Source of the DNA: Azolla caroliniana
Taxonomy: Eukaryota; Plantae; Polypodiophyta
Direction: 5' to 3'
Length of the DNA stretch: 64,000 nt
Assembly (NCBI GenBank): GCA_043228905.1
Contig: JBHGNT010000018.1
Span: 16,492,001-16,556,000 of the forward strand
A program made the translations under genes and the position numbers. Below the pieces are notes generated by a model. That model made no database searches and was not told the DNA's origin. It saw only the letters and a program-made list of their open reading frames with translations. Shown one piece after another: positions 32,238 through 64,000 of the stretch. Within the stretch, counting starts at the first letter, position 1, and each line of letters starts with the position of its first letter.

Positions 32238-32710
32238 ATCGAGGCATATAGACTCTATGCACACGAAACATCAAAAAATAAAGGTAAACATAATACACAA
32301 TTAAGGTATTGACCTCTTACGCATATGACACCTATCACCTAATCGAGGCATATAGACTCTATGCACACGAAACATCAAAAAATAAATGTGAACATAATAC
32401 ACAATTAAGGTATTGACCTCTTACGCATATGACACCTATCACGTTATCGAGGCATATAGACTCTATGCACACGAAACATCAAAAAATAAAGGTGAACATA
32501 ATACACAATTAAGGTATTGACCTCTTACGCATACGACACCTATCACATATCATTTAAATAGAAATCGAGGTATTCACCTCATACATATACACAACATATG
32601 TATGTAAACGTAATACGCAATTGAGGTATTAACCTCGTACGCATACGACACGAATCACATATCAAATATATGTCAAATGAGGTATTGATCTCATACACAT
32701 ATGTATACGT
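32238..32710. repeat. 104-bp tandem repeat (3 near-identical copies plus decayed copies) in the chromovirus 5' leader
   Basis: Units start ATCGAGGCATATAGACTC at 32238, 32342 and 32446. Degenerate GAGGTATT(G/A/C)ACCTC sub-units continue to ~32700. Confidence 0.9.
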
Positions 32711-34159
32711 TTTATACAACCAATCCATTACCACTACAACATCATTGAATCAATATAAAAAACACATATTAACTATACATGATTTGATTGCGAGAAGAAA
32801 GAATAGAAAAAAAAATCAGAAAGAGTTACCAAAGTTCACTTGTTAATTCCTTTCTGAATCACGATCGACCGCACACCGATCGATCACCATCCATCAAAAG
32901 AAAACAATCAACAAACGAAACATTAGAAACATGGCTCAGATACCAATTGTGAGAGCTTAGATCTTTAGTAAACTTTGATAAGGATAACAAAGATAGATTA
33001 ATAAGAAAGAAGGGTGCCGATCCACTCGACCACCCCCGAGCGAAGTGATTGAGACGAACTCGAGCCTCGATCGGCATCCCATACCACTGTCATGGCGTGA
33101 AGTTGTACCTGATGCTGCCACACTCACTACAAGAGTTGACCCACCACAAGAACAGAGTCTTGATGTAGTCAAGAGATGATGAAATGAGGGTCGCTAGGCC
33201 TCATATTTATAGCCAGACCCAAGGCCTCCAAGCAAGTTCACAGTTGGCCTAATGTGTTGGCCTAATGTGATCCTCCCTTTTTTTACACTCTCGTTTAACC
33301 CTCACACTTTATGCACATGTATAGAATACTACGGTACATTCTCACCATGGGATATTATATGGTCATGCCCGTAACACCTTTCAAAGGAAAAACTCAAGAA
33401 TGAAGAAGTAGAACAAGTGGAGAAGAGGGTCCAGGAGGCAACTAGATGGAGAGATCCATTCTATAGAAGCGAAGATGGGCTTTGTAGAAGTTTCTTGCGA
33501 GAACTACGAAGTTCTGGTTGAAGAAAAGAGGATCAACCATGATGATGGAGTCGGGCCCTTGAGGAGGTATGGCACCCGAGGAACATGAAGAAGGGAGGAG
33601 TCGAACCTAGTCTAAGCACATAACGAAAGAGGAAAAGAGAAGGGAAACCTCCCAACATCAAGCTTTGTGCAGAGATCAAACACGCAACGGATTTCAAGAA
33701 GGTAATGGAGGAGAGAATCCTCGATAGTTGCGTAGCATAGAGTTCACTCTACAAGAGGTCCTCAGAATAGCCAAGAAGAATTACTCGAGAAGTGGTGAAT
33801 CTTGTGAATGTGAATCCGGTGTCAACCGAGATGCTCCATGTGGATGAAGACTATGTAGATAGTCACTACATGAGGTCACATTGGGCAAGAGCAACAACGA
33901 AGACACTAGTGTAGATCGGAGATGTAAAGGAGCTGGTGGTAGCTTTGACCGACTATGGATTTGAGATCAACCTTATATCCATGGACCTTTACAAGAAGGA
34001 CAAGGGATTGATCAACATGAAGCACGAATGGCAAATTAGAGTAGTGACCCAAGCAACCGAGGGGCTACACGGGGCTTGCCCAAATGTGCAGTTGAAGGTG
34101 GGGGATGTAGAAATTGACCAACATTTCTTTGTTCAGGTGACATCCTTTCATTTGGTAAC

Positions 34160-35410
34160 AGAAGAAAAATCTTTCCGGTCAACTCCGTTGGCATGTGCAC
34201 TGCCATTGAAGACCTTGGGCGGTTGATTGAGGAAGAGAGGATAATCAAAGTACAAGACCATGGACAAGAAGGTGAAGCATGCGACTACTCCCTTGCCAAA
34301 CTGTATTATATTGTAAAACTATGGTCCAAAAATTTGAGAAGGAAGATGTTTTACGCGAGGCCCATTGTGGTATTGTTGGTGGGCATTATGTCGGCGACAC
34401 GACCGCTCAAAAAATCTGGAACATTGGATTATGGTGGCCAACGACTCTGAGAGATGCAGTAACTATTGTCGACAATGTGATTTGTGTCAACGACTCGGTC
34501 AACTAAGTGAACGAGATCGTATGCCTCATCAACTGGTACTATCCCTAAAGATTTTTTTTAAATGGGGTCTCAATTTTATCGGGCCATTTAAACCAGCAAT
34601 GGCGAGAACCGACAATCGATATGTCATAGTCACCACCGACTACTGTATGAAATGGGTCGAAGCCAAAGCTCTTCGGGATAATACGACAGCTTCAACGGTA
34701 AAATTCCTCTATGAGGGCCTATGTTGCAGATTCGGTTGCCCAATTGAATTAGTACGTGATCAAGGTACCCACTTTGTTAATAAAGTTATTCATGAGTTAT
34801 CAAACTATTATGCAGTAGTGCATAAAAGGAGTACATGGGCAAGCTAATGGGTTAGCCGAGTTGACAAACAAAACTATTCAAAAAATTCTAAGGAAGATTT
34901 TCAATGAAAATTGGACCAACTGGGATCAGAAGCTTCATAGTGCCCTATGGGCATACTGAACAATGTAAAAGACTATGATCAGGTCGACTCCGTGAGGGAT
35001 GGCAAGCAGTGATGCCGATTGAGTTCCAGATTCCGACTCTACGTGTACATGTGACAAAACGACTAGGTGAAGAACAATCAGAACAGATTCGGAAGGAACA
35101 ACTTCTTACATTAGAAGAAAGTCAATTGCAGACAATGTAACAATTAGAGCAGAAATAGAGAAAAACGAAAGTTTTTGTCGACTGACACCAACACAGTAAG
35201 GAAAAGTTGTTCGACATAGGTATACCCATTTTGGACTTTCAAACAGAGATGGGTGACATGCCAAGAAAACTCTGATTTCGATGGACCGGTCCTTATTGGA
35301 TTGTCAATGGCAACAAAGGCATGTATCAAATCGGCACATTACCTGATGAAGTCTAACCTAAGTGGGTGAATGGGTTCCGACTCAAGCCTTACTAGGAACC
35401 AACACCGACT
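34160..35410 (+). pseudogene. Non-chromoviral (Athila/Tat-like) Gypsy integrase remnant
   Basis: EAHCGIVGGHYVGDTTAQKIW..GLWWPT, CRQCDLCQR, KWGLNFIGP, DYCMKWVEAKAL, RFGCPIELVRDQGTHF, and a GPY motif near 35285. Confidence 0.8.
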
Positions 35411-37510: not shown

Positions 37511-40500
37511 AAAATTTCCATGTAGCAAAATTTCTATTGGAAGTGGCTTGTGTAAGCCCACAGTCATATTGCATCCTGAAATAGAGGTTGGGTTCATCAT
37601 AGCTACATAGGGGGAGAAAATTGACTGGGGATACATCACTGGTGTCGCTCTCAGAGAACAACTCCACGGGGTGCATAATGGGAAAGCCATGACACTGATT
37701 TTTGCACGGTGATTGGCGGTATTATGTCCCACCTCGGTAGCTAATACAGGACGTAAGAAGGAAAAGGGACAGTTGTCACAAGCAAGGCCGAAGGAATCGG
37801 CATGCCGAATAGTACCACGCAATGAATGGCAGGAACTAGAGCCGACAACCGCACCTGAACCTGACAACCAACAAGAACCGGAGCCGACATAGGAACCCAG
37901 ACCCGACACCGACCAAGGACCGAAGACAAATAAACAACAACAACCAGTCGAGTCGACAAGTGTCACTCGATAGTCGGCTCGAGTACCACAAGCCGAATCA
38001 CGACCATCACCTCAGATGAAATAGAAGATTAAGCGGTTGTCACAGCGAGTTTCCACTTACCAACCAAATCAAGGATAATGACGGCCGAATAAAAGAAGCA
38101 GAGTCAAACAATAGTCGTCGACCAAACAACAACAACAATAGCCAGCCAAACAACAACCGACTGGAGACTAGTCGAACCTGCACAGAGAGGAACAATAGAA
38201 ATGGGGAAGACGTCTACAATCTCCCCGAACGAGGTTCTTGGACTACCGGACATTCCACCAGCGGCCCATGTCTTTGTGGTCCTACTCTAGTTCAGCACAT
38301 CCTATGAATTGGTGGATTGGTTGGCAAAGCGTATACAATTCGCTTCTGACCTATTAGCGTAAGAACACAAGGATCGCGAAATGATCTAGAAGACCATGCT
38401 CGGATACCTTGAGCCAGAAGAAGAACAGGAGATGCAACGAATCGGCCGACAACGCCGTGTCAAGAATAACGGTACGACGATTCAACTACCTCCTCTTAAC
38501 ACTGCTCTCGTTGACGTACATTAGGAGTTAGATAGAACGAATAGAGCAGCAAAAGAAATGGCTGAAGCATGTAAAAGGGCAACGAAGGCAGCCGATCAAA
38601 TGCATATAGAGTGGTTAGCAACGAAGAAGAGTAATGAGGAGTTGTCGGCCTGACTTCAATAGGTAGAAGTAAAGTTAAAAGAAGCCGAAGAGTATATGCA
38701 AACCAGTGATTTTGCTAGAATCCCCCATGTACAAGATAAACAATTATGGGATCAGCTACGAGCCATGGAGAAAGAAGTCGAACAAGCCAATCAAAAGGCA
38801 GAAAAGGCCGAATCCAAAGTGCGGGAAATGAAAGACTACCTCGAGATGGCAAAGACCAAATTTGGACCATTGTTTGACGTAAAGGTGGACGAAATTAATT
38901 TCCTCAGGGAGCGGTTACAAAATCGCGAGGAATGGTTAGCAGGCGTCGAAGACCTGGTGGCATTGGTCGAAATACAGGAGGAGTAGTATGAGAAGCACAA
39001 GACTCAGCTCGAACTCGAGAAAGAAGAACTAACAAAGAAGTACACCGAGCTTGAGGCCAAATATGAACAAAAGAGATTGGCATTGTTGGTGGCAGAGGCA
39101 AAGTTGTAGTTTGATCAAGGTTCTGCAGAAGTCTGACTTGCCGAAATGAGGAGGGACTTGGTGTGTATGCAGTACCGACTCAACATGGGAGAAGAGAAAG
39201 TACATCTCAGCGCACAAGGCCAGTGCTCAAATCCCTCGACAAAGGCTGGAAGACATGGTCGGCACAAGCTGCCGAATTACAATTGTTGAGAGCCGACCAT
39301 GACAACAGAAAGAAGCAAGGTCAGGGCTTCTTCAAGATGGACGAAGTAGCGATCACCACAGTCCAAGAGGAGCTTGCCAAAGACCTATATGAGTTTTCCA
39401 CAAGCCACATGGAAGAGATCACCAAGCTGATGGAGGACTACGACGACCATCACATGGCCGCTACCATGCAACTAGATGCTTATGAGACAAAATTTCAGCA
39501 ACAGACAAATCAGGTGACATGGCGACGAGGATCTATCTCCCGACAAATCAGGTGACATAGTAGCAGTGAGCGATGTTGCAGGCGACACTGAGCCAGAGGA
39601 GACGGCAGTAGAATCGATGCGGAAGCCGGAACAAGAGTTTCACATGGGCACACAATCACATCCATCCGAAGCCGAAGCTCAAGCCTAAGAGGAGCCGAAT
39701 TTGTTCGACATACTAAATGAGGACGTGAGCAGAAGGGACAACGATGACCCAGCCGACGACGCACAAGAGGATGACCATTGTTCGACATACTAAATGAGGA
39801 CGTGAGCAGAAGGGACAACGATGACCCAGTCGACGACGCACAAGAGGATGACCATTGTTCGACATACTAAATGAGGACGTGAGCAGAAGGGACAACGATG
39901 ACCCAGTCGACGACGCACAAGAGGATGACCAGGTGTAAAGGGCAGGGTTCGACCGTGCAAGGCAATGTCCCACGAGGGTGCCATGTGTTAGTCCGTCAGC
40001 TACCTGAGGGACAAAGGTTGACAAGTTGGATTCAGAGTCGAAGCCGAACAGTATGAAAGGATAGATTTGAAAATTTAATTTTAGCCGAGTATAAAAATAT
40101 AGCAATTTAGAAAATAGAATGGTTTTGTGATAACTGTAGGATCTTGTTGAACAAGACAAGTGTAATCTTGGAGAGAGACTCTTGGGTCACCTATAAAAAG
40201 GGACCGAGAGCACTGTAATTGTATCGGTCTATTTTGGTTAATATAAGTTTTGGTAGTTAGAGTATTTACTGTGTCAACTACTATATGTATTTTTCTACCT
40301 GTCGCATGTTCGAATTTAGCCTCTACTACACATATTATATTATCTCTAATAGTCGATCAGGCGTGTATGTCTAATCATAATAACTAATCTCTGTGCAACT
40401 ATTCTTTGAGTGTAGAATTGGTGTTGACTAACCCATCTCTCCACCACAATCTTCTTGACAAAACGTCTGACCTATTGATGTCAATTACAATTGTCGGTTG

Positions 40501-40778: not shown

Positions 40779-40799
40779 CACCATGCATACATACATACC

Positions 40800-40892
<93 letters not shown>

Positions 40893-40963
40893 ATATCTCT
40901 ACCGAAATATTAAACAATCAGCCAATAAGTAAACAATACACCATGCATACATGCATACCTACA

Positions 40964-41030
<67 letters not shown>

Positions 41031-41090
41031 ATATGTATATGTATATATCTACCGAAATATTAAACAATAAAGCAATAAGTAAATCAATAC
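40779..41090. repeat. Tandem duplication of a unit containing a (TG)n microsatellite
   Basis: CACCATGCATACAT..CCTACATG(TG)n TATG..TATATCTCTACCGAAATATTAAACAAT occurs twice. Confidence 0.9.
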
Positions 41091-41510
41091 ATAAATACTA
41101 AATACACGATCGTACACTAATCAATAATAAATCGTTATAATAATCACAATAGAGCTAGTTAATAACATGGCTAAAAATAACAAATAGATGGCATACAATC
41201 CCAAGTCCAAATGGTTCATCTAACACTTCAATATGAGTCATTTTTCAACTAAATTGGTCCCATCTAGCATATTGATGTGGGAGTATGAGGAAGCCCTAGA
41301 TTTTCTTCGTCATCATTCAACCTAGGAAGTTACCTTTCTTTCAAAAAAGGTAGACATTTATTTATTCCTACTTCAACTCGACCACAAACACTTACATAAA
41401 TGCACTTAACCTTCTTCCCTCCTCCCAAAATTTGGCCTTGCTTGACCTCCACGCCACTTGATTGAAGTGCACTTTAATTCTATTCAATTGGTTGGCCATT
41501 CATTCAATAC

Positions 41511-43934: not shown

Positions 43935-45688
43935 TTTTTTCTTTTTTTTCTTTTTTTTCTTTTTTTCCAAAAAAGAATATACTCCTTTAGTTAAAATATA
44001 CAGAAACTCGATCCCTTTCTCGGGAAGGCGGAGCCAAGACTATCCTATCCTACACAAGAGATCTTGCTTATTTATCTTACACTTTCACATATGGCTCTAG
44101 CCATCCTTTCATGCACATCACCTACATTCATTATCCCACATGTCATGTCTTTCACGCCCCTCGTTCATCTAATGGGAGGGGGGAACAACCATTTGGGTAC
44201 TTCATACTTCCATAGTATATCCAGTCCATTTGTTGTGGCCATCGGTGTAGTACACCATCGCTTTCGAAAATTCAGCCTTATTAGTTCTGCAACATCATTA
44301 ATACCATCAATCCGCTCATATTTAGCTCTTAGTGTAGTTATTAATGTGTGCCAGATTAGCTTAGTCGATTCAGTTGGGGGGCGTTTGTGTGCTGAAAATA
44401 CCCTGGTACACCTTGATGTCCATATATACCATATAGTAATGGGGGCAAGCAACATCCAAAAATCTCCAGGTTTTTGATTCTGTGCACAAGTTGTAGGTAC
44501 CCTGTTGTCAGTGATCAGCCGCACAATGCCATTCTCCCCTCTGTACTTAGCATCGCATGTGCTATCGTATTTCGCCACATCATCCTCAAGACAAATCCAA
44601 CAAGCATGTCCCCAATTGAGGGTGAACGGACTAGAGGCATGGCAAAGCAAACGTAGTGCCCTTCCCCATACAGCCACTGCCTCGCAACATTCCCATAGAC
44701 AATGGGAAATGCTTTCTATCTGTCCACGGGCAATACATCTAGGGTCTACATTGGGGCCTTTACCCCACGTCCCTACCGGCAAGGCTCTATGTGCAATAAG
44801 CCATAAACACATCATTATCTTGTGGTCATATCTGTCATGCCATATCATTTACCAGAATTTATCTAGTCTCATTTCACTAATGCCCTCCTGTATCCAAAAT
44901 TTCCTTGATGCAATCTTGTCGTGTTCTTGTTGTAGAATAATTTGCCTCCCAATCTTTGTGTTATACCTGAAAATTTGAACCAGCTTTTCCCCATCAGTTC
45001 GTCCTTGAGTTTTCCAACAATACATCGATGGGTCCCATGATCCAAATGCCCTTGTATAGGCCAACACACTATCGTAGGTGTGATCTCCATTGGCTTAGGG
45101 TCAATAATCATATTCTTGCCATTTTTGGCAATCACAATCTTGCCCGCAAAGGATAGTTTTCTCACATTCCACCATATTAACTTTGCTTTTATTTTGTCCA
45201 CTAGTAGATTGTAATGTTCTGCTCGATCAATGTCCATACCAATTTTGAAGCCCAAGTATCTACTAGCTTCTCCTTTCCTCAACCATCTAAAATTGGGGTC
45301 GGGGACCCAATTTAACATGAGCTTATTACTGATCCAAATGCCAACAAATTTATTCCAATTTATTTTAGCATTGTTGAGAATCAAGCTCAACTTGGTCTAG
45401 TGTGTGAACTCACCTTGAGAGTGAATAGACACTCCAACGGTCAAGAGTCACCATTAAGTCACCTCTTTGTATTCTAGCATTTAGTATGAGTCATAGAATC
45501 ATATTCTATGACACATAACTTATGAGCTTTCACATTCCCCATGCTCCATGAGGCTTGTAGTTAATGAAGAGAGAGGGTGACTATATAAACCACCCTCCTC
45601 CCACCTTGTATTCTGTTGAGTCTTTCTCCTTTGTTAATATAATCTACCTTGCGTATACTCTGTCTTACTCCTTGTCTCTCTCACTCAC

Positions 45689-45729
<41 letters not shown>

Positions 45730-48480
45730 CACACACGGTTCATTGTACCCGGACAGATAATGCATCGGCCTTTTCTATCCATGAGTCGAGGGTCCAAATA
45801 CCATCTGTCCAACCTGGACATCGTCCACCCATGCACACTTCCTCCTACTCTAGAGTATCGAATAGATTTTTCTTTTTGCATTTGAAAGTTAGGTGCATTC
45901 CAACAGTCTATCACATTATATGCTAAACAAAACTTATCCCATGCATACTTCTCTGCCCCCTGTACCGTGCCATTTGCATTGCCTCTTCTATCTTCTGGAT
46001 GCTCCACCATATTAAAGTCTCCTCCAATGATCCACAACTCAGCATCTGGTTTCTTGGCCACTAATTGCAAGTAGAATTCTTGTCTTTCAGCAGCTGAATT
46101 TGGGGCATATATGTTCAGTATGCCCAAGTGCCCACAACTATGTTTTATCCTTATGTAGATAGCACGCCCCTTTATTAAACTCCCCTTGCCTGTACAATCG
46201 ACAGTAAACTTAGCTTTCATAGCAATAAGTACTCCCCCCTGAATCGGCCTATCCTCAGTAGTTGTTGACCATGTATTGGTCCAGTTCCCAAGGCAAATGC
46301 TTCCAATTTTATCAATCTTATCCTCATCTAGATGGTGCTCCTGCACCAAGATAATATCAAGCACCATTGCCTCAATGCAACACTGGATTTCAGCAACCAA
46401 TACATTCTTTTTCATCTGGAATTGGGTGCCATCAATTCCTTGTATATTCCAAGTTAGCAAGCTAAGATTCAGATAATCTACACCTTCTGAGGCTTGGCCA
46501 ATGCATTTTCCGCTTCCAATATGGTAGCTAATATCCTATCTTGGAGATTTTCCTTTTCCAACTATGTCAACATTTCAGGGATGTATACCATGAATTCCAT
46601 GAACAATTTAGGAAGCTTCCTAAATTTCACATTTATGTGGCATATGCCTTGTTCATTCGCCTTGCCCGAACTCCAAATCAAGGCATCTTTCCATTGTCTT
46701 TTCATTTTCATCCCTATTGCGGTACCATATGATGAGTCTACATGAACATCCATTTGTTGTTCCAAACATCCAAGGGCTTCTTCTCTACTATGTGGTTCCT
46801 TATTTCCCAAGGCCAAAACATAGAACAGACCAACGATCCGTCCTTCATCAATACATTTACCATATATATTGACTCTACATATGTTGTCCTTCTTCATCTC
46901 ACTTCCACATATTTCCTTGAACCACTTTTTGCCTGTTAGTTTCAATTTGATCTATTGTCCAGTATTCGAGAGGGGGGTCACCTTGTATTGAAGATTCCAG
47001 TCCACTCTTGGCCATCTACGCATCCCTTTATTTTTTTCCATCCCCTGCACCTCCTCTTTTCTAGCACGCATGTGCCTTTTCATTTTTGCTATCCCCTTCA
47101 TATAATGGGTTGTCACCAATGCCTTAGCTTTCTCTTTCAAGGGGCTTACGACCTTTTCTACATTTAATTTTCCTACCTCATCCATACTTTCATGAAGCAT
47201 CTGGCCAAAATCATCCCCTACCAAGTTGTCTTCCTAGTGTAGTTTCTCCATATTAGTGCTTCCACATTATTGCTCTCATGAGTTGCCTTCGATTTTGCTT
47301 CCCTTTCATTAGGTTTGTTTTCATTGTCCTCTGAGGTTAAGAGCGCGTATTTGTTTCTAAGTGGGAGCCATTCTTGTCCGACCATGACTTTTTTTTTGCC
47401 TTTATAGGTGTTATATTTCCATCCATCTTCATTCTTACTCATTGCATGGTTTATTTGTTGATTATTCTGTTGCATCAGGCTTGTTTGACTTTTCTGTCCT
47501 TGCTTCCCATTTCCATGATGCATGTGCTCCTTTCCTCTAGGGCATTCTCGGGCCATATGCCCCATCTGTCTACATGCAAAGCATTGCCCTAGGGGTCCCG
47601 CATACTCTACAGTTTGTACATGGTCAACCATTTGTTTACTGCTCAACAACATTGATTGCGGTAAGGTCTTTACACCCAAAACAATTAGTTTGATCCTCGG
47701 TGTTTCACTTATTCTCTCTACAAGAGTTTTTCCAAGCATTGCCCTCCCATACTTTTGCCAATGGTTGGGAGAAAGGATCCCCATTGCTTAGGTAAACCAG
47801 GGAAAAAGGTCGTTAACATTGTAGGATTGCCTATACAAGCATCAGCTTTACACATGTCAAAGTTTGCAGCCCAATTGAATGCATAGGCTCTCGCATTGTG
47901 CCAAATCAGTGGGCTGCTCTCGACAATTTTGCATATATTCGTTTCCGGCATCACTGTAGCATGGTAGAACCCCTTTCCCATAAATGCAATGTCCTTCAAT
48001 TTGCCAAGGTCTTCTAGTAGCAAGCTTTGCAGCCAATCACGCAACATTGCTCTATTGGGTCAACTACCCACCACTTTTACCACAACGGATTCACGTTTAA
48101 GACGTGTTAATTCACTCTCCATAAGGCATTCTTCTTCCAGGGAGAGAACAAAGGCTCCCATTGCATGCATCGAGGGACCATTTCGATAGTCCACCCCTTG
48201 TATTTCCTGTTTTGTTTCAGCATCAATGCGATTATATAGATGTTCATGACATAACTGTGTCCCATTGAAGTCCAGACGGTTTGGGGATGATGTTCGTGCA
48301 TGCTCTGAAGCAGCCGAATCTTTGTTCAAAGATCCCTCTACTGCCATCGCTCCTCACAATCGGGTCGTTGTTCGATGACTCTGTTGTCGTCGTTTGATGA
48401 GCCCACTACTGTCAGCGTCGTTGTTCCTCTGTTCTCCCGTCAACACCTCCTATTCAGCCTCCCGTCGGCGCCTATCTCTA
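43935..48480 (-). mobile_element. L1-clade LINE (L1c): ORF1 and ORF2, RT core deleted at an LTR insertion
   Basis: ORF1 ~46480-48347 with zinc knuckle CFACRQMGHMAREC. EN 45723-46460 (LTWNIQG, LVQEHHL, NIYAPN, GGDFN, SRLDRWY). RT tail RYLGFKIG; zf-RVT LWLIAHRALPVG..ESISHCLWEC. A-rich tail at 43935-43966. Confidence 0.92.
45372..45742 (+). mobile_element. 3'-truncated LTR of the Copia A family inside L1c
   Basis: Starts TGTTGAGAATCAAGCTCAACTTGG and is colinear with LTR 20618-20999 for ~370 bp. Confidence 0.92.
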
Positions 48481-51940: not shown

Positions 51941-54900
51941 TCATGTTGTTTGTTGTGAACGGTTACTTGCGGAAGCGTTAGAAAACAGAGAAAGTAGGGA
52001 ATACAAGGAGTACACAGGAGAGACAGAGAGAGCAGAACGTAAGAGCTATATTCAAAACGATATAATCACTCTGTTACATACAATTGTGCTCAGTAGCACT
52101 ATTTATACAAGTTCTCATGGGACTGACAGAAGTACTGCGTACTTCAATGCTCACACGAGCTTCTGACACTTACTACGAGACTATAATTGCCTAGTAGTCT
52201 AAACTAATATTCGGCTTCCGGTTACCGATTGGATCCGGCTAACCGACTCCCCAACTCACCGGCTTTGTTGCTTGCCGGTTCGGTTGCTTGCGGCTTACCG
52301 ATCCGTCTTGCTTGCCGGCTCAGGCTTATTGAGCCGATCCGGCTCTAGTTGAGCTTGCCGCTCAACACTCCCCCTCAAGCTCAACTTGAGGTTGGATCCT
52401 AGTGTCAGTCTCTGTGGCAGTCGGTTCTTCCAACCGACTTCTCCTGGCGTCACTCCGCCTTGCTCGCGCTACTCGTCCGGTTAGGTTCTGTTTGCCGCGA
52501 CCCCTCTTGTTCTGCGCGCCTCGACCTTCTCGGTCGGTATGTCTGCTCAATAGGCCCCTCTCAGCTCCTCGCTGCTATGACTCCGACGCTTATCGATCCG
52601 TCGGTTCCTCCGCGATGGCATTGACTTCCGCTGCATCTGTGTCTGCTTGGCCTTGAATTGATCCGGTTCTTCCAAATCTATCTTTTGAGCCGAATCGACT
52701 GTCTCCGATTCGTTCCAGCTCTTGTTTGAATCGGTTGCTCCCGATTCGTCTTCTGGTTCCAAGCCCTTCACCACATCGGACCATGTCCGAGTCTTGTCCT
52801 TCTTCCTTCGGTCATCTCTGTCCTTCTTGACTCTGCCGCCTTCTGTTCTTCCCTCACCGACGCAATCGGCAGTCTCTTTGCCTTTGCCCATTCCGGTGTC
52901 TTTGCTCGTCCTCCCCCTCAAGTGTGGCACGTCGAGTTGCTGAACACCAAGAATTTCGGTGAAGTGTTGCAACTTGTCTAATCCGAGCGGCTTGGTGAAG
53001 ATGTCGGCAACTTGTCGATCCGTGTGAACATACCGAAGTTCGACCTCACCGCTCAGGACACGCTCACGCACGAAGTGATAGTGCACTTCTATGTGCTTTG
53101 TGCGAGCATGGAATATGGTGTTCTTGGCGAGTTGCATGCTGCTTATGTTGTCGCAGTAGACCAGAATCGGGGTCAGTACCTCGATCTGTAGGTCTTGCAG
53201 CAGTCACTGAAGCCAAATGGCTTCACAGGTGGCAATGGTAGCGCCCCAATACTCAGCCTCAATGCTCGACAGAGTAACTGTTGGCTGCTTTTTGCTGCTC
53301 CACACAACAACCGCGCTACCTACGGAAAACATATAACCGGAGGTTGATCGACGATCTGATGCATCGCCGGCCCAGTCGGCATCCGTGTAACCGACGAGCT
53401 CTTCGGTTATACCTCATCGATATAACAGTCCCCGGTCCTTCGTGCCGCTTACATATCGCAATATCCGTTGCGAGCACTGAAGGTGCTCCACGGTCAGCTT
53501 CTGCATGAATTGACTTATCATTCTGACCGGATAGCTGATGTCGGGTCGAGTGATGGTCAGGTAAATAAGGCTTCCAACAATCTGTCGGAACCGTTGCTCG
53601 TTGCAGGCCGGTCCGGAGTTGGGACGAAGCTTCTGGTTCCGGTCCAAGGGTGTGGAGACAGGTCGGCATTCTGTCATGCCGAACTTGTACAGCATATTCA
53701 AGACGTAATGTCATTGTGAGAGCAATATGCCGTCCGGGGTTCGGATCACATCGATCCCTAGAAAATAATGAAGGTCCCCTAGATCCTTCATCTCAAATGC
53801 GTCCAACAACTGGGATTTGACGTGGTTGATTTCTGGAACTCCTGGTCCGGTGATGACTAGATCATCAACATACAGCAGTATACATACCGGACTGGCTGAG
53901 CCTTGCCGGATGAACAATGAAGAGTCCAATTTGGAGGCCACAAACCCCATCTTACGAAACCGGTGCGTGATCTTCGCATTCCAAGCTCGAGGGGCTTGCT
54001 TTAGGCCGTACAACGACTTCTTCAGCCGGCATACCGCCGACTTGTTCATCTCTGATTCAAAGCCGGGGAGTTGAGTCATAAAGACTTCTTCTTCAAGATC
54101 ACCCTGAACAAAATGCATTCTTCGCATCCATCTAGTGAAGATGCCACCCTCTTGCTGCAGCAACCACCAGCACCACACGAACCGTCGTCATCTTCGCTAC
54201 CGGAGCGAAGGTCTCGTCGTAGTCGATTCCGTGGGTCTACGCGTATCCCTTCGCCACTATCTGGGCTTTATACCGGTTAACAGAACCGTCGGCGTTGTAC
54301 TTTACCTTGTATATCCACTTGCATCCGATCGGTTTACAGTGACAAGGAGGGTCAACCAGGTCCCATGTCTTGTTGACATCAAGTGCCCGCATTTCTTCTT
54401 CCATAGCGGCACGCCAATTTGCGTCCTTGGCCGCTTCTGCATAGCTCTCCGGCTCACGCACTTCCGCCACCTTAGTCATGTACGCATAGTGATGCGCCAT
54501 GTACTCATTCTACCCGTACCGCTGTCATGAAGATTTTCGGCAATAGTGTGAAAATCCCATAAAACGTACGAAATCGAGTATGAATCACGTAGTACAATAA
54601 TTGTGAAGATAACATTTTAAATAGATTTAATATCTAATTACAAAATGATGGAGGTTTCGAATGCACTTTATTACACGAGAAACGGACAACTAAATGTCAA
54701 GATATGAGGGTATAACGTTTGTAAAAGGAAAGGAGAAAATTGTGAGATATCCCACATAGGCACGACAAATACAACTCTCATCATATATAAGGTGGAGCAA
54801 AAGATATTATCTTTGTGTCTATGTGTGGAGCATAGAGAGTTCAAGGTAACTTGAACTAAGAGTGGAGGTGGGCTAGCTACTCGTAAAGAGTTTTGGCCAA

Positions 54901-55101
54901 CCAAAACCGGACCGGCGATGGAGCCGGCGACGGTGATCCGGTGGCAATCCAGCGATGGCATCCGGCGAGGCACCGGTAACCGACGGCATCCGGCGACGGC
55001 AACGGTAACCGACGACATCCGGCGACGGTATTCGGCGAACCGGCGTCCGGCGACTAGATAAATAAATATATAAATATATATACATATTTACATATACAAG
55101 G

Positions 55102-55173
55102 AGGGCAAGTAAGGATTCGAACCTTGCACCTCCAAGTTAGGAGTCAATTGGCTTACCATTAAGCCATGCTATT
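55102..55173 (-). promoter_or_regulatory. tRNA-derived Pol III internal promoter (A box + B box) in the 5' LTR
   Basis: The minus strand reads TGGCTTAATGG (A box)...CTCCTAA...AGGTG CAAGG TTCGAAT CCTTA (B box GGTTCGAATCC) with canonical tRNA spacing. The acceptor and anticodon stems do not pair. Confidence 0.7.
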
Positions 55174-55576
55174 TAGTTGAAATTATATTTCTATCATTGT
55201 AGTTTTACATGTAAATTCTCATACATGAGAACTAAAATGAGTGACATGGTTATCATGCACCACATGTAATACATAAGCGCCAAATGGCAAACATGCAATT
55301 TATGCATGTCTTGTACCCTCACATGCATCATATGCATGAGAACATCTATAAAATAGGGAAGGGGGAGGAGAAAAAACACGAGTTTTTTTTATGAAAATTA
55401 AGAGGAAGAAATTCGTTATCAAATCAATCGTGTAATCTCAACTTCTCTCTTTCCCAATCTATCTTAAGTACTTTCTCGCCAAAGCTTGTATCGACTCTAA
55501 ATCCTTCTGGTCCAGAACCCCGGCGGTTCCGCCTCACGATCCACGCGTAGTGACGGATCTTCACGACATAATTAAG

Positions 55577-55594
55577 TGGTGAACCCGACGTGAA
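55577..55594 (+). promoter_or_regulatory. Primer binding site complementary to tRNA-Trp
   Basis: TGGTGAACCCGACGTGAA is the reverse complement of the 3' 18 nt of plant cytosolic tRNA-Trp (…UUCACGUCGGGUUCACCA, recalled). It lies 8 nt after the LTR end. Confidence 0.85.
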
Positions 55595-55629
55595 AGAGGC
55601 AGTAGGAAGGATCAAATCAAGATTAATAC

Positions 55630-57834
55630 TTGGAGATGGCGTCCTCAAGCAACCAAGCAGGAGAGCTCGAAAGGATGATGCTAATCATTGAGCAAATGAT
55701 GAGATCTCAGGACAACAGCGCGAGCGTGGAGAAGGCTGTCGATCGTGTCATAGAGCTCGAGGGCCAATTCGATGGAAGGAACGTTACGAAGTTCCTTGAT
55801 GCATATAGAAGGGAGATGAATCAAAGGGACGTGTCTGAGGCACGTCAAATCGCAAGCTTCAAGAGAGTTGTCGCCAACAACATCCAAAGACGCGTCATCG
55901 AGCTTCAAGAAGGTAAGACAACATGGTCCGAGTTCGAGAAAATGATACTAGCGGAGTTCGTGACTAAAGACTCAACGAGGATGACACGACATGCCTTGAT
56001 GAAGTGGATAGAGAAGAAGAATAAGAAGATGAGCGTCTCGAGGGTGTACGACGAATTCGACCAGATGTTTAGTCGTCTCCCCAATACGGACCAAGTGTTG
56101 CTTGAAGAGGACAAGACTTTGTACTTCTTGAAGGTCGTGGACATAAAGGATAGACGGGAGTTGGGGACTCTTCTCGAAGATGATACCCAAGCAAATGGGC
56201 TCGTAGCGGACTGGATTGCGGTGAAGCGGGCATGCAATAGGCTCGACAAGCGTCGCGAATGGGTTGATTACACCGACTTGATGGGACCGACTACCACGGA
56301 GAAAGCAAGACCGCCGAAAGTAGCTGAGCCGCCAAGACAAAGTAACGTGGAAGAAAAGAAGATTGATGACGACATCATTGAAGAGCTAGCGAAGAAGTTC
56401 GAGAAGGTCACGCTAGCCAACATGAATCGTCGGGGCCCTAAAGGAAAAGAACCCTTTAGATGCGTGTGGTGCGATAGTATGGACCACATGAGAAGGGATT
56501 GTGCGAGCCTTCGAGAGGCAATTCGACAAAATATCGTATACATAGAGGACAACATGATCTGCTCAAGCGAGACTAGAAGACCCCTACGGGTGAATTTCGG
56601 AAGAGGAGGAATGAAGAGATCTATGGAGGATGCCGATGCGACTCATGTGGATGCAATGCACTATGTTGCGTCGGCCGGAATAAGAGTCAGGAAAGACAAG
56701 ACTGAAGCTGCTAGAGCGGGAGCAAAGTTTTGGACTTCCGTTCTCGAATATGAGAAGAAGGGAAAAATCACATCGAACGAGGTAGAGCTTGCGGACCGAA
56801 GCGTGCAAAGCATAACCGGGTGGTCGGATCCGGTGGACGACAACACCATACTCGCAGAGGTGATGTGCGACAACCACGAAGTGTTCGTCGAAGAAAAGAG
56901 AAAGAGAATAGAAGAGCAAGGGCCATCAAAAAGACATGAAACAAGGAACGCGAAAAAGAAGGACGATGCGGAGACAAGTCGACCTTTACAAACGGAGGAA
57001 CGAGAATCAAGCCGAAAAGGGGAGCCGAGCATACGAATTGAAGAAACGGTTCGGCCCGTGAAGGTTGGTGTCGAAGACCCCGCTCGGAGGACAAGGACTA
57101 TACCTACCTATAAGCTAAGGTCGGACATAGAGCAGACGACGGACCTAAAGAAGATTCTCGAAGAACGAGTTCTTGATAGCCACGTAACTTTGTCCTTGAG
57201 GGAATTGCTAGGCATTACGAAGAAGGAGTTCCATGACACGATCGTGGACCTTGTAAAGAGAAAGAGACAACAATCGGACGAGGAAGAAGAGAAGCCGCAA
57301 AAAGCAAAAACGAATGCCATAACGATGGCAAGAGACGAAATCGATGAAGATATGGTGGACAGCCACTACACTCGACCTCATTGGGCACGAGCGACAACGG
57401 AGACGCCGGTGAAGATCGGGGAGAAGAAAGAGACCGTGGTAGCCTTGATCGACCACGGCTCGGAGATCAACCTCATGTCAACCGACTTCTACAAAAAAGG
57501 AAGATGGCCAATCAATACAAACCACGGATGGAAGATTCGCGCGGCAACAAAGTCTACGGAAGATTTGTACGGAGCTTGTCCCAATGTCAAAGTCACGATC
57601 GGGGATGTGGAGATGGATCAACACTTCTTCGTACAAGAATCGGCGTCACATCCTGTCACCCTAGGGCAACCTTATATCACATCATCTCGGATGGAGACCA
57701 AAGTGTTCGATAATGGAGCAGCCTTCGCACGAATAAAGAGTCTTGACAACCAAAGATCGGTCCAATTCCTAACGGTCCGAGCCAATCATGAAAGGAATCG
57801 AGATAGTCTCGGAGGCGAATCCTCGGATTTTTAG
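55630..57834 (+). CDS. Gypsy Gag-protease polyprotein (intact ORF)
   Basis: 734-aa ORF with gag FDGRNVTKFL, zinc knuckle CVWCDSMDHMRRDC and aspartic protease ALIDHGSEINLM. Confidence 0.9.
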   Translation: MEMASSSNQAGELERMMLIIEQMMRSQDNSASVEKAVDRVIELEGQFDGRNVTKFLDAYRREMNQRDVSEARQIASFKRVVANNIQRRVIELQEGKTTWSEFEKMILAEFVTKDSTRMTRHALMKWIEKKNKKMSVSRVYDEFDQMFSRLPNTDQVLLEEDKTLYFLKVVDIKDRRELGTLLEDDTQANGLVADWIAVKRACNRLDKRREWVDYTDLMGPTTTEKARPPKVAEPPRQSNVEEKKIDDDIIEELAKKFEKVTLANMNRRGPKGKEPFRCVWCDSMDHMRRDCASLREAIRQNIVYIEDNMICSSETRRPLRVNFGRGGMKRSMEDADATHVDAMHYVASAGIRVRKDKTEAARAGAKFWTSVLEYEKKGKITSNEVELADRSVQSITGWSDPVDDNTILAEVMCDNHEVFVEEKRKRIEEQGPSKRHETRNAKKKDDAETSRPLQTEERESSRKGEPSIRIEETVRPVKVGVEDPARRTRTIPTYKLRSDIEQTTDLKKILEERVLDSHVTLSLRELLGITKKEFHDTIVDLVKRKRQQSDEEEEKPQKAKTNAITMARDEIDEDMVDSHYTRPHWARATTETPVKIGEKKETVVALIDHGSEINLMSTDFYKKGRWPINTNHGWKIRAATKSTEDLYGACPNVKVTIGDVEMDQHFFVQESASHPVTLGQPYITSSRMETKVFDNGAAFARIKSLDNQRSVQFLTVRANHERNRDSLGGESSDF

Positions 57835-57887
57835 AGCGGACTATTGAAGCATGGGGCACAAATAGTCTGAGCAATCACAAGACCCCA
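57825..57887 (+). promoter_or_regulatory. Putative -1 programmed ribosomal frameshift signal
   Basis: G GAT TTT (57825-57831) lies directly before the gag-PR TAG. Stem 1 is CGGACTATT/AATAGTCTG and stem 2 is TGGGG/CCCCA. The -1 frame is open into pol. Confidence 0.75.
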
Positions 57888-60800
57888 CAAGAAAGAAGAG
57901 TGCGTGGATTGCAAGGAGAAGCAACATGTGTCACACCTAGTGGCGCATGTAAACTAGTACTACCCGACAAGAAGCACAAGCGCCGGATACAAGAATTCGA
58001 GAAGATGCTGAAAGAAGAGAACATAATAGAAGAAGGAGAGTTCGTGACTCATATTATGGAAGAAGCCTCATTTAACGACACCATCGGCGAAATCGAGGAC
58101 GTCGTGGACTTGAGCTATCTTCACAACCAACGCGTGATTTCGGTTAACTCCGTCAACATGTACGCTATCATCGATGAATACCGTCGTGGCATCTCGATGA
58201 AGGAAGCTGACATCAACACGAAATATAAAACGGTGGATAAGAAGATCACGCCAGTTGCGGTTCCGCTACCGGAAGATAGCTAGCAAAAGATGAAGGAAGT
58301 CGCTAACGATCCAAGCTTAAGAGATCCGAAGAAGATAGGTCATGTCTTCACCAAAGAGACGAAGGGGAAGCTACGAGTTGGAAAGGAGAATTTCCTTCTC
58401 CCTGAAGAGGACCGAATGTTTCGCGATATGCTTGAGAGACATGGGAAGGCTTTCGCATTCTTCCCATGAGAAATCGGATGCGCCGACCCAAAGGTTATAG
58501 AGCCGATGGTGATCTTCACGGTGCCTCATGTGCCTTGGAACTTGAAACCGATACCGGTTCCGAGAGCACACCTTCCGAAGCTGATCGAGCTCTTAAAGGA
58601 GAAGGTGAGTATGGGAATTCTAGAACCGTCAAATGCTCCTTATTCCAATAGGTGGTTCACGGTGCCGAAGAAGAATGGATCATTGCGATTCATCCAAGAT
58701 CTTCAACCCGTCAACAAGGTGACAATTCGAAATGCCGGAATCGGTCCGAGCGTGGACGAATTTGCCGAAGCGTTTGCGGGCCGGTCCATCTACTCCATTG
58801 GCGATCTCTACTCCGGATATGACCAATTCCAATTGGCGATCGACAGTCGGGATATTACAACCATGAGGACTCCGATCGGGCTTGTGCGGATGTGTACCTT
58901 ACCCCAAGGCCCAACGAACTCGGTGGCTCATATGGTGAATGCCATGAATAAAGTCTTGAAGGATTGCATTCCGGACATCACGATGCCATTCTTGGATGAT
59001 ATTCCGATGAAAGGATGTTCGGATGAGGAGAAAGATGAATCGAAAGATAAGGAAGGTTGTAGAAAGTTCGTTGCGGATCATATGAAAGATTGCGAGAAGG
59101 TGCTTCAAAGGCTCGAAGATGCGAATTTAACATTTTCGGGAGAAAAATCCGCATTCGGGCAACCGGAGATCTTGGTGGTAGGTCACTTGTGTGGAGCATA
59201 CGGCCGGAAGCCCTCGCCATCCAAAGTGAACGCAATCCAAGACATGAAAGAAGAATGCGAAAACCAAACGGAGGTTCGAAGGTTCCTTGGAGCGTGCGCG
59301 TTTTATCATATATGGATTCCTCACTACGCTCATGTCGCTGAACCGTTATATGGACTACTAAAGAAAAGAATAAAGTTCGAATGGAGAGACGAGCACACAG
59401 AGGCGATGCGAAGATTAAAGAAACTGCTTCTTGAAGCTCCGGCACTAAGGAAGGCCGACTATGCCGAAGGGAAACCAATTTATGTGACCATAGATACGAG
59501 CCCAACCGGAATCGGGTGGGTCATCAATTAAGAAGGTGAAGATAATGTGCAATATGCCATCCGGTTCGGAGCAAAGGTTCTCAGCGAACGGCAACAAAGA
59601 TATGCCCAAGTCAAGCGGGAACTTTGGGGTATTGTGTCGGCAGTGAAGACGGACAAAGATTACCTGATCGGGTCAGAAGTGATAATAGAGACAGATTGTC
59701 TCCCAATTCTCGGAATGGTCTCGGGATGTGCGACCCCAGATCTTGCTATGCTAAGGTGGATCGCCTACATCAAGTCTTTAAACCCAGAGATCCGTCACAT
59801 CGTAGGGAAGAAGAACGCCATGGCTGACATGCTATCGAGGGCAAGATTTTCAAATGGAAGTAACATGGTTTCGGAAGATGAAGATGTCGCCCTCGACTTC
59901 TTCAAGATGGCTTGATTGTCGGCGGAAGACCAGGACACGCAAACCCTCCACGCCTTCAACGAGAACGAGTACGAAGGAGAATGGTTACTCATCGGTAGAT
60001 TCCTAAGAACATTGACGACAGATGCTTCGTTGACAAAGGAGGAGGCCCTACGAATCCGAAAGAAAGCTTACCGATACTTCTTGAAGGGAGGATTCCTTTG
60101 GCGACATCCAAAAAGAAGGACAGGAATACCACGTCGAGTGGTGGTAAAGAAAGAAGAGCAAGAGACGCTGATGACCGAATTCCACGAGAGTGCTTGGGCA
60201 GGTCATAGAGGAACATGGGCGACGTTCGAAAAATTGAAGGAGAAGTACTGGTGGCCAAGCATGTTTAAAGATGTACTCCATTTCGTGTCCACATGTGAAA
60301 CTTGCCAAATATATTCAAATATACGTCATTGTGATGAGTTAAGGCCGACATACCCACTCACCATTCACTTCAAATGGATGGTGGATCTGGTCTCGATGCC
60401 AATGGGAGTGGGACAAATGAAGTACTTAGCGCTGGCAAGGGAAGACTTGACAAATCAAGTGGAAGGACGAGCCTTGACAAATAAGACGACTTCAGCCGTT
60501 TGTAAATTTTTACTTGAAGATGTTGTTTGCCGATATGGATGTGTAGGGAAGATAGTGGCCGACCGAGGGGAGTTGGACGCGCACGAAGCGACGGAGCTCT
60601 TCGAAAGACTAGGCGTGAAGCTCTCCCTCACGACTGCCTACAATCCGGAAGCAAATGGGAAGATCGAGCGAGGGCATGGACCTATCGTTAAAGCCATCGT
60701 ACGGGCATGCAACGGTCGAGTCGGGAATTGGCCACGACTATTACCCTATGCCTTGTGGGCCGATAGAACGACACATAGCTCAGTGACAGGGTATATGCCG

Positions 60801-61319
60801 ACGGAGCTTATGTATGCACAAAAGCCGATTATGCCCATCGAAAGGACGATCGCCTCATGGGTAGCGATACCGTGGGAGAACGAGATGGGCCGAGAAGAGT
60901 TATTAGCGGCGCGGATAAGGCAACTTGAAAGAAGACCTGAAGATTTAGAAAAAGCGCGAAAGATGATGAAGGCAGCCTGAGTAAAGAACAAAGTTCGGTT
61001 CGACAACACGCATCGACTTCGTCCCAAGAAGATTGAAGAAGGGGATTGGGTTTTGGTTTACAATAGCACCCTTGACAATCAACACAGTACAACAAGGAAG
61101 TTCGCAAGAAGATGGTTCGGGCCGTATGTGGTGACAAGTGCCAACGATAATGCCACATACCACCTTGCGGAACTAGACGGATCAAGGTTGGCCGTACCCA
61201 TTGCGGGAAAAAGAGTAAAGATTTTCAAGAAAAGACAAGACAAGGATCCTGACCTCGATTACCTCGACGATGAACATAATAGGCCAGATGAAAATGAAGA
61301 CATGGAGGAATCTAATTGA
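57828..61319 (+). pseudogene. Gypsy pol (RT-RNaseH-integrase) in the -1 frame, five in-frame stops
   Basis: ORFs 57900, 58506, 59547, 59916 and 61053 share one frame. RT DLYSGYDQ..PFLDDIP, RH IDTSPTGIG..ETDC, IN H..GH..C..C, VDL, ADRGE, NGKIERGH, GPY. Confidence 0.9.
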
Positions 61320-61970
61320 TCATCGTAGCCGAAATCTCACTTCTTCTCTTCTTGGCACGTACCGGAGGACGTGTGGTTTGGTGGGGGTGGATGTCGTGAA
61401 GATTTTCGGCAATAGTGTGAAAATCCCATAAAACGTACAAAATTGAGTATGAATCACGTAGTACAATAATTGTGAAGATAACATTTTAAATAGATTTAAT
61501 ATCTAAGTACAAAATGATGGAGGTTTCGAATGCACTTTATTACACGAGAAACGGACAACTAAATGTCAAGATATGAGGGTATAAAGTTTGTAAAAGGAAA
61601 GGAGAAAATTGTGAGATATCCCACATAGGCACGACAAATACAACTCTCATCATATATAAGGTGGAGCAAAAGATATTATCTTTGTGTCTATGTGTGGAGC
61701 ATAGAGAGTTCAAGGTAACTTGAACTAAGAGTGGAGGTGGGCTAGCTACTCGTAAAGGGTTTTGGCCAACCAAAACCGGACCGGCGATGGAGCCGGCGAC
61801 GGTGATCCGGTGGCAATCCAGCGACGGCATCCGGCGAGGCACCGGTAACCGACGGCATCCGGCGACGGCAATGGTAACCGACGACATCCGGCGACGGTAT
61901 TCGGCGAACCGGCGTCCGGCGACTAGATAAATAAATATATAAATATATATACATATTTACATATACAAGG

Positions 61971-62042
61971 AGGGCAAGTAAGGATTCGAACCTTGCACCT
62001 CCAAGTTAGGAGTCAATTGGCTTACCATTAAGCCATGCTATT
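61971..62042 (-). promoter_or_regulatory. tRNA-derived Pol III internal promoter in the 3' LTR
   Basis: Identical copy of 55102-55173. Confidence 0.7.
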
Positions 62043-64000
62043 TAGTTGAAATTATATTTCTATCATTGTAGTTTTACATGTAAATTCTCATACATGAGAA
62101 CTAAAATGAGTGACATGGTTATCATGCACCACATGTAATACATAAGCGCCAAATGGCAAACATGCAATTTATCATGTCTTGTACCCTCACATGCATCATA
62201 TGCATGAGAACATCTATAAAATAGGGAAGGGGGAGGAGAAAAAACACGAGTTTTTTTTATGAAAATTAAGAGGAAGAAATTCGTTATCAAATCAATCGTG
62301 TAATCTCAACTTCTCTCTTTCCCAATCTATCTTAAGTACTTTCTCGCCAAAGCTTGTATCGACTCTAAATCCTTCTGGTCCAGAACCCCGGCGGTTCCGC
62401 CTCACGATCCGCGCGTAGTGACGGATCTTCACGACACCGCTTGACGGGATCCTTCTGGCGGGTGGACCGACGTAACTCACTGTTACCCTGTTTGAGGCCC
62501 TTCTTGGCCGGTTCGGTCTTCGTTGTCGAAGGTCCGCCTTTCTCCTTGCCAGAGTCGGATGCACACTAATCCAACTCATCGTTGCCGGTTTCGAATTCCG
62601 GCATCTTTTTCTTCCCCTTCTCCTTGCGCGTGAACTGTCGCCTCGGTTCCTTGCGCGGGGAGTGCACGGCAAAGTCTTCACTACTCGTCGGTTCCTCATC
62701 GGACTGGTCAAATTGACTCAATCTCTCGTTTGGCCCGCTCAACCAGAACGATTCCGGACTCTCATCCTGAGTCCACACTTCATCATCCTCTACCTGGGCT
62801 GGTTCCAGCACACTAGCCTCATCCACCGGCATCGGGTCGGATTCGGAAGTCAGAACCGGTAAGGAGTACCACGATGCCGATTCATCGAACTAGACATCTC
62901 GACTAACTCGGACCTGCTTTGTCCGGGGGTGATAACACTTATAACCCTTCTGCTCTTGAGCATAGCCGATTGGGATGCATTTTTCCGATTTTGCATCCAG
63001 CTTCTTCTGCTTCTCTTCTGGTACATGCACATATGCAATGCTACCGAAGATCTTAAGGTGTCTCAAATTTGGCTTGCGCCCGAAATACAGCTCGTGAGCT
63101 GACACCGTGTCACTGATCCAGTTCTGGATGTAGACAGTCGTTTGGACTGCCTCCGCCCAATAGAATTTGGGCCTGCTCTTCTCCTCCAACATTGCCCTTG
63201 CCGCATCAATAAGCAACCAGTTCTTCCTTTCGGCAACACCGTTCTATTGCGGTGTGTATCTACAACTGAACTCTCGCCGAATTCCCTTTTGCTGCCGATA
63301 ACTGTTGAATTGGCTGGAAAAGTACTCTACAAGGAGCATCGACGGCGTATTCTCCCTTGTACACACCGTCGTTCGGAACGCTCTGAACTTAGACGCCAGG
63401 CCCCCAAGACAGACCTGTACCATCTCGTCTTCCTCTACGGTAACGTTGATAGAGGCAAGCGAGTCACAGATCTCTTTGATCCGGGCCGTGTAATCCGCCA
63501 TTGACATGTCCTTCTGTCGGACATTGCTCAACTCCTGTCGGAGTTGCAGCTTCCGAGCTGTAGTGCTCGCGGCGAAAACCTTCTTCAAGTTCCCGCAAGC
63601 CTCCTTTGGCGTCTTGGCGTCTCGAATGTGGCTCAGCAGCTGGTCTCCGACAGTGGACGCGAAGCAGTACATCACTCTGCTTGTCGATTGTTCCCACACT
63701 GGGAAGTCCTTATGTGCCGCATCAGGTGTTGTTTCGTTGGCTCCTTCGACGAAACTCCAGTAGCCATGCCCAAGCAGGTATTGGTGCATCTTATACGACC
63801 AAGATGCATAGTTGGATCTGTCGAGTTTCTTCACAGGGAGCGAGCTAGCCATCCCTTTATCCATCACTTCTCTGTCTGTTGTTCTTACGACTTGTTAGGG
63901 TTTGCTTTCAAGCGTTTGTCGGCTGAAGAGGTTCTCAACCCTCACGCTCTGATACCATGTGAACGATTACTTGTGGAAGCGTTAGAAAACAGAGAAAGTA

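Follow-up and report, generated by a model that had tools for sequence, protein, structure and literature searches.

A candidate programmed -1 frameshift signal behind the protease of a Phygy-like LTR retrotransposon family

The Gag:Pol ratio of plant LTR retrotransposons has so far been explained mostly by single open reading frames (ORFs) and by splicing. A locus in the fern Azolla caroliniana presents a different arrangement, in which the Gag-protease (Gag-PR) frame closes with a stop codon directly behind a slippery heptamer and the polymerase domains follow in the -1 frame. In our effort to establish how elements of this kind might express Pol, we considered the locus within its window (the whole 64,000 nt stretch of DNA that was analysed) together with related loci and proteins. 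The reading that we favour, with a probability of roughly 0.88, is that the junction is a family-conserved cassette for pseudoknot-stimulated programmed -1 frameshifting of ribosomes (-1 PRF) at the Gag-PR/Pol boundary of a Phygy-like element.

The host element and its gag-pol junction

The cassette is held by a Ty3/Gypsy LTR retrotransposon of 7914 bp (~7.9 kb; 54523-62436, plus strand), recognized by its LTRs, its target-site duplication and the domain order GAG-PROT-RT-RH-INT. The 5' LTR (54523..55568, TG...CA) and the 3' LTR (61392..62436), both on the plus strand, differ at 10 of 1045 aligned columns. A 4-bp duplication of the NCGN type, CCGC, flanks the element on the left (54519..54522) and on the right (62437-62440); a 5-bp reading was dropped because its last base already belongs to the LTR, as the T of the terminal TG. 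Eight nucleotides behind the 5' LTR lies a primer-binding-site-like motif (55577..55593, plus strand), which may be of the tRNA-Trp type that marks the Phygy clade and which recurs behind an LTR-like end in many related loci. A G-rich polypurine-tract-like stretch, read from the sequence, is located on the 5' side of the 3' LTR (61376..61391, plus strand).

By duplication, size and lack of a chromodomain the element fits the description Phygy-like, and these traits are what sets it beside the REXdb clade. According to the accessible part of the REXdb description, Phygy elements have a 4-bp NCGN duplication, matched here by CCGC on both sides of one insertion only, and a length of 7656-9968 bp, within which 7914 bp falls (PMC6317226). 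Pfam returned no chromodomain and no extra aRH or second RNase H match, and the length is that of a compact element (7.7-10 kb). Named relatives come from Physcomitrium, Riccia, Adiantum and Calypogeia, and the nearest ones from metagenome assemblies; the protease is 60-65% identical to many Physcomitrium predicted proteins. The viral contigs searched gave no match, and the prokaryote genomes gave one 811-bp fragment in which the junction is absent, which is likely contamination and was excluded.

Read by eye, the element appears nested in a minus-strand Copia-like element (52500-54522 and 62437-63900), whose RT/RNase H part lies to the left and integrase/gag part to the right. Elsewhere in the window are two more Copia-like elements, which are oppositely oriented, and an LTR copy related to them (20618-25959, 26000-29714 and 45372-45750), as well as tandem arrays at 32237-32660, 39701-39931 and 40788-41103, whose units measure 104 nt or 77 nt or are short and simple. 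A decayed remnant of the same lineage (33400-34300; 47% over the protease region) is deleted across the frameshift junction, with an integrase fragment of another element behind it. As its protease-like portion (33651-34160) is deleted before the junction, it is unusable as a second copy.

The Gag-PR ORF (55636..57834, plus strand) is intact, encodes 732 aa and ends SSDF*. The initial annotation had stated that the gag ORF includes the protease and ends at GAT TTT TAG, and this holds, with weak scores for the protease. The ORF contains DUF4100, a weak Gag match and, with the C-terminal tail, an aspartic-protease-like domain (57352..57831, plus strand) that scores below the Pfam cut-offs. Specifically, the last 160 aa reach E=0.011 against the aspartyl-protease Pfam models, below the cut-off, and Asp_protease_2 was matched in 17 of 20 family members with a best E=1.2e-4 that is likewise below it; alignment of the C-terminal part with the Ty3 protease is weak (E=0.14). 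The protease motif at 57451-57459 reads D-H-G, as in 20 aligned members, but D-Q-G in L055. The Ty3 protease has D-S-G, and the second residue of the catalytic triad is unusual here.

All coordinates originally given for the heptamer, stop, spacer and both stems proved exact on re-reading. The heptamer G_GAU_UUU (GGATTTT; 57825..57831, plus strand, as are all parts of the cassette) conforms to X_XXY_YYZ in the gag register, as a tolerated G_GA variant. The gag stop TAG (57832..57834) stands directly behind it and forms the first three nucleotides of the 5-nt spacer TAGAG (57832-57836). Predicted stem 1 (S1) joins the 5' arm CGGACTATT (57837..57845) to the 3' arm AATAGTCTG (57861..57869) by nine pairs, eight of them Watson-Crick and one G.U. 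Predicted stem 2 (S2) would pair TGGGG (57852..57856) with CCCCA (57883..57887), which gives the predicted knot loops of 6 (L1), 4 (L2) and 13 nt (L3). Signals for -1 PRF have their structure 5-9 nt downstream, and the predicted spacers are 5 nt here and 4-6 nt in most families.

The knot was assessed by a two-stem score that is a sum of stacking terms only and no true free energy. On this scale the score of the 70 nt examined was reached by none of 500 dinucleotide shuffles, and of the 21 slippery-like heptamers that the element contains, the one in the cassette has the best knot score (-25.5, against -19.8 for the next). Stem 1 is the minimum-energy hairpin (z=-4.2). The bare two-stem pattern ranks seventh among 5600 positions in the element; the knot alone is thus not unique, and what is unusual is the combination. 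A search against Rfam matched no family up to E=10.

The pol frame (57807..61319, plus strand, -1 to gag) runs through a linker, RT, RNase H, integrase and an SH3-like tail, and it is broken by stops at 58281, 58467, 59529, 59913 and 60978. The initial description of a -1 frame open into pol is right in that GFLERTIEAWG belongs to the RT frame, but the frame already closes at the first of the five stops. Related loci have uninterrupted counterparts of 1100-1200 codons. Because the five stops leave the window copy unable to make Pol, any function of the cassette is the family's and not this copy's, and the copy is a dead witness, in which the signal is kept while full Pol cannot be made. The five stops are present despite LTRs that differ by only ~1% and an intact Gag-PR; possibly the copy was made from an already defective template, with Pol supplied in trans.

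Reading frames, slippery site and pairing across the family

Scanning metagenomes yielded 164 matches, and the analysis went on with the best 80, many of which nearly duplicate one another and stem from a single assembly series. When the window copy is counted in, the end of ORF1 could be located in 79 rows, 71 of which have a DF, VF, GF or EF tail. Among the eight rows that do not have such a tail, the heptamer lies behind a premature stop in at least four. For the frame test, circularity was avoided by picking loci only for an intact RT core (n=42).

Relative to gag, the pol frame of these loci is -1 in 40 of 42 and -2 (equivalent to +1) in the remaining two. None has gag and pol in one frame, the arrangement that, in the initial annotation, would have marked the junction as a private indel. 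In 40 of 42 loci (30 of 32 when duplicates are left out) the pol frame also stays free of stops as far as the heptamer, the two rows that fall short being L012 and the window copy. A downstream ORF that is in the -1 frame and open from the shift site is thus found across homologues (40/42), as -1 PRF calls for. Six rows have a -1 frame that opens only 3 nt before the heptamer, which confines entry to 10 nt.

The heptamer itself is strongly kept. Among the 71 junctions, GGATTTT occurs 61 times, GGATTTC four times and GGTTTTT twice, with four singletons, and a stop stands directly behind the heptamer in 65 (TAA 28, TAG 26, TGA 11). Silent positions are fixed as well in the 40 non-redundant -1 rows. 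The preceding third-position base is G in 40/40, the Asp codon within the heptamer is GAT in 38/38 rows as against 228 of 392 upstream Asp codons (58%), and the Phe codon is TTT in 37/40 rows as against 67 of 167 upstream (40%). The three bases before the heptamer vary freely in the same rows, and neighbouring conserved residues use mixed codons.

At the protein level, the Gag-PR tail from VQFLTV to DF varies in length from 23 to 38 aa while DF is constant. When C-terminal ends were counted for 121 proteins (the query included, and only where the anchor motif matched), 33 ended in DF and 26 in PL, the latter mostly as a DF-xxx-PL tail; entries from Physcomitrium, Riccia and Adiantum are among the proteins with DF or PL ends. 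Distant representatives often end in or near DF, NF or GF, although these were not counted.

Covariation was assessed in a structure-blind MAFFT alignment of 36 distinct junction rows. Of its 540 cells 86.3% are paired, compared with 38-45% in slid-partner controls, and two-sided changes are seen in 12 of 15 pairs (S1 8/10, S2 4/5). None of 500 shuffles reached any of five covariation measures, but the rows are related, many coming from one metagenome assembly set, which inflates such counts and means that they are not probabilities. Covariation of both stems across copies, together with a conserved heptamer, had been proposed as a check on the cassette, and these counts bear it out. The predicted fold is of the H type: the loop of stem 1 would pair with a 3' strand, and the compensatory changes in S2 are consistent with this. 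Examples of alternative S2 arms are GCGAGA/TCTCGC in L077, GAGGGT/ACCCTC in L057 and CAAGG/CCTTG in L055.

An alignment-free test used 42 rows, left after 14 duplicates, 14 rows with a short pol frame, 8 tailless rows and 1 row that was too short had been removed from the 79; its windows were set by the analyst from the structure. Arms scored better with their own partners than with those of other families (S1 -14.5 against -11.6; S2 -13.3 against -11.4), a result matched in 0 of 10000 permutations.

Four DNA runs compared with the window add evidence from variation. Among the 40 variant rows listed, out of 48, none falls within 57811-57833 or the S2 arms. The listed cassette variants comprise one at 57834 that keeps the stop, two at 57837 and 57868 that keep pairing, and others that all lie in loop 3; no indel within the cassette is among them. 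The gag stop is polymorphic, TAG or TAA, and T57868 is C in 82-93% of the depth in the four runs, which turns the G.U of the window into a full G-C pair.

Pairing is not uniform throughout the family. The two outermost S1 pairs are present in only about half of the rows, and in L001 a non-knotted minimum-energy fold competes, in which the S1 5' arm pairs with a different downstream AGUCC. No knot was found by a search in the degenerate loci L071, L072 and L076. By eye, L023, L025, L026, L028, L029 and L036 share a 16-nt loop 3 with CCGG-like self-complementary bases, which might build one more helix together with the stem 1 end.

Routes to Pol and comparison with known systems

The layout, frames, conservation and covariation described above suggest the following course for the slip, each step of which is proposed from sequence. 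The ribosome would pause while its P site is occupied by GAU (Asp) and its A site by UUU (Phe), at which point stem 1, 5-6 nt downstream, would meet the mRNA entry channel and be locked by stem 2. Both tRNAs could then slip to GGA and UUU, and translation would go on as ...S-D-F-L-E-R-T-I. Ribosomes that do not slip would stop at the next codon and release Gag-PR, and a minority would yield a Gag-PR-RT-RH-IN fusion, so that Gag-PR would be in excess over RT and integrase. The functional recoding that the initial annotation proposed is supported by frames and covariation for the family, and not for the window copy, from which Pol cannot come. Evidence to the contrary is provided by eight long Riccia gene models that combine protease and RT in one protein.

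These models bear on the alternative that survives best, although we judge it improbable: splicing may remove the stop region, as in Ogre, with TTTTTAG as acceptor or the knot as part of a regulated intron. Ogre does have an intron between GAG-PROT and RT (accessible part of PMC6317226), and gene models from both Riccia and Physcomitrium bridge protease and pol. Yet 10 of 40 rows have no AG within 6 nt behind the heptamer, and an intron would neither hold the pol frame open to the heptamer nor fix its silent positions. In the four measurable Riccia models the join falls 51, 121, 121 and 126 residues ahead of the YK..KK motif. The models that were inspected lack the DF-plus-knot peptide, as we infer that automatic intron calls over a frameshift would. 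The annotated Physcomitrium and Riccia host 'genes' that bridge the frameshift are P0002, P0048 and P0293-P0300, and their bridges are likely falsely predicted introns. A frameshift junction would account for such false introns from gene predictors in moss, liverwort and fern genomes.

Slightly less probable again is that Pol arises by termination-reinitiation or from an internal AUG, with the knot serving as an initiation or packaging element. Stop and structure do adjoin, and a structured RNA could serve in packaging or dimerisation, but across 40 rows the position of the first Met in the pol frame ranges from codon 3 to codon 111, and the heptamer is of X_XXY_YYZ form in the gag register, with its silent sites conserved. 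We give still less credence to slippage of a polymerase, during transcription or reverse transcription, that adds a base to some RNAs on the T run. A run of T4-T5 is present, and structure-stimulated slippage of reverse transcriptase at shift sites has been published (PMC5737442 and PMC5737552, in part). Against this, the run is a short one, and the four GGATTTC junctions interrupt it to TTTC, one family of them (L049) having an intact pol of 1143 codons. A spacer of 5-6 nt also suits the entry channel of the ribosome, for which the accessible text of PMC7618472 gives 5-9 nt. Splicing, reinitiation and polymerase slippage all fit worse than -1 frameshifting. That a single dead copy acquired a private indel or was misassembled, with stems formed by chance, has almost no probability left: the window copy is decayed in pol and the two-stem pattern is equally strong at two other places in the element, but the complete absence of in-frame loci, the lack of listed cassette indels in four runs and the covariation refute it. 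Readthrough of the stop codon was rejected, as frame 0 closes again after 3-64 codons and none of the intact loci has RT in that frame.

The -1 frameshifting that we favour resembles canonical -1 PRF, as in Rous sarcoma virus gag-pol, animal Gypsy elements and PEG10, for which the accessible part of PMC5009743 describes an X_XXY_YYZ site, a 5-6 nt spacer, a 3' pseudoknot and pol in -1 near the end of gag. It differs from the canonical systems in the plant host, in the protease upstream of the shift and in the stop directly behind the heptamer. Alpharetroviruses likewise have the protease upstream of the shift. An identical G_GAU_UUU with a stop close behind is found in pea enation mosaic virus RNA2, a representative of umbravirus/dianthovirus sites, and stop-to-stop changes there are neutral, which matches the free exchange of three stops seen here. 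The structures differ, as the umbra- and dianthoviruses use a bulged stem-loop with long-range pairing whereas a compact local H-type knot is predicted here (both after the accessible part of PMC5009743).

Within plant Gypsy elements, the initial annotation held the break behind the protease to be unusual. That part did not stand, since Ogre (GAG-PROT:_:RT, with an intron) and Retand (GAG-PROT:s:RT, with a stop) are also broken there, but an overlapping-frame break at this place is unlisted in the accessible part of PMC6317226. In the same source, GAG overlaps PROT-RT in Tcn1 and Selgy, before the protease rather than behind it, and these overlapping ORFs already imply frameshifting in plant Gypsy elements. 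The Phygy entry gives its ORF organisation as ND, and the present family would fill it with GAG-PROT overlapping RT-RH-INT in -1. A gag-pol survey of 2003, as cited in the accessible part of PMC5009743, names no more than two types of plant element whose frames are split, in both cases +1. No description of the signal was found in the literature searched, which included accessible parts of PMC12786077, PMC7466625 and PMC3350952 and left subscription papers outside its scope, nor was classical -1 frameshifting with a pseudoknot described there for plant LTR retrotransposons. The interest of the family is carried by the breadth of its covariation, dozens of natural versions of one signal, and by the candidate switch from -1 to -2 considered below.

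A candidate -2 shift in two sister families

The two intact loci with pol in the -2 (=+1) frame, L057 (junction 2835-2898) and L059 (junction 2497-2560), read CAG GTT TTT GAC/TAC TAG and have AG_GUU_UUU in place of G_GAU_UUU. Their -1 frame closes immediately or after four codons, and an uninterrupted RT-RH-IN ORF of 1154 or 1101 codons lies in the -2 frame, which continues F-L/F-T-R-T-V/I, homologous to F-L-E-R-T-I. The knot is intact with paired substitutions of its own, and in stem 1 the conserved GG begins 5 rather than 6 nt behind the heptamer, a spacer shorter by 1 nt. L057 and L059 are sisters (100/100) among -1 lineages in a tree built from 29 of the 42 rows and given a midpoint root for drawing. 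Between them dS is 1.16 and the dN/dS of pol is 0.086, from which we infer that pol remained under purifying selection long after their shared arrangement arose. Within the L057-type protein cluster, all six members that reach the C-terminus end QVFD (among 15 of 35 listed). Two of four further runs cover the L057 junction, with no indel listed; the contig that crosses it at a depth of 2431 shows one difference and is free of gaps. The other two runs, X21 and X22, give L057 no cover.

We think it probable, if with some reserve, that a seed-free-plant lineage with knot-driven -1 shifting after the protease gave rise in L057/L059 to a natural -2 shift, in which the same knot acts on AG_GUU_UUU across a spacer one nucleotide shorter; the arrangement is known from these two lineages only. 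Two successive -1 slips are rejected for L057, as its -1 frame meets TGA immediately. Formally, a +1 shift may also lead into the -2 frame, with one residue fewer.

The site has a counterpart in the -2/-1 signal of arterivirus nsp2TF, which in the accessible parts of PMC7618472 and PMC6675879 shows the same eight bases, AG_GUU_UUU, in the same register, with a -1 frame that closes early and a product in the -2 frame. L057/L059 have the RG_GUU_UUU site that is characteristic of arterivirus-type -2 PRF, with the predicted product in the -2 frame. In the same sources, arteriviruses rely, in place of an RNA structure, on a C-rich motif at a distance of 10 nt that is bound by nsp1beta/PCBP, whereas L057/L059 have a covarying pseudoknot 5 nt away. 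The CCCANCUCC motif 10 nt downstream, which replaces an RNA structure in protein-stimulated shifting, is absent from both junctions. With the family pseudoknot in this position, the signal would work like the arterivirus system and not be a member of it. Shifting by -2 is optimal at spacers 1-2 nt shorter than those for -1 (accessible part of PMC3458567). If the proposal is true, L057/L059 would represent a natural -2 frameshift that is driven by RNA alone, through a pseudoknot, and evolution would thereby have confirmed the mRNA-tension rule established in vitro. The -1/-2 sister pair is a natural experiment, with the same knot, a spacer of one base less, another site and another frame, and makes the spacer-tension model of PMC3458567, as far as its accessible part sets it out, open to a direct test on plant ribosomes.

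In this respect a VF ending is no proof by itself, since L075 ends VFP and yet has pol in -1. The Gag-PR relative P0265 from Calypogeia fissa ends KVFY like L059, and it is possibly a further -2 case.
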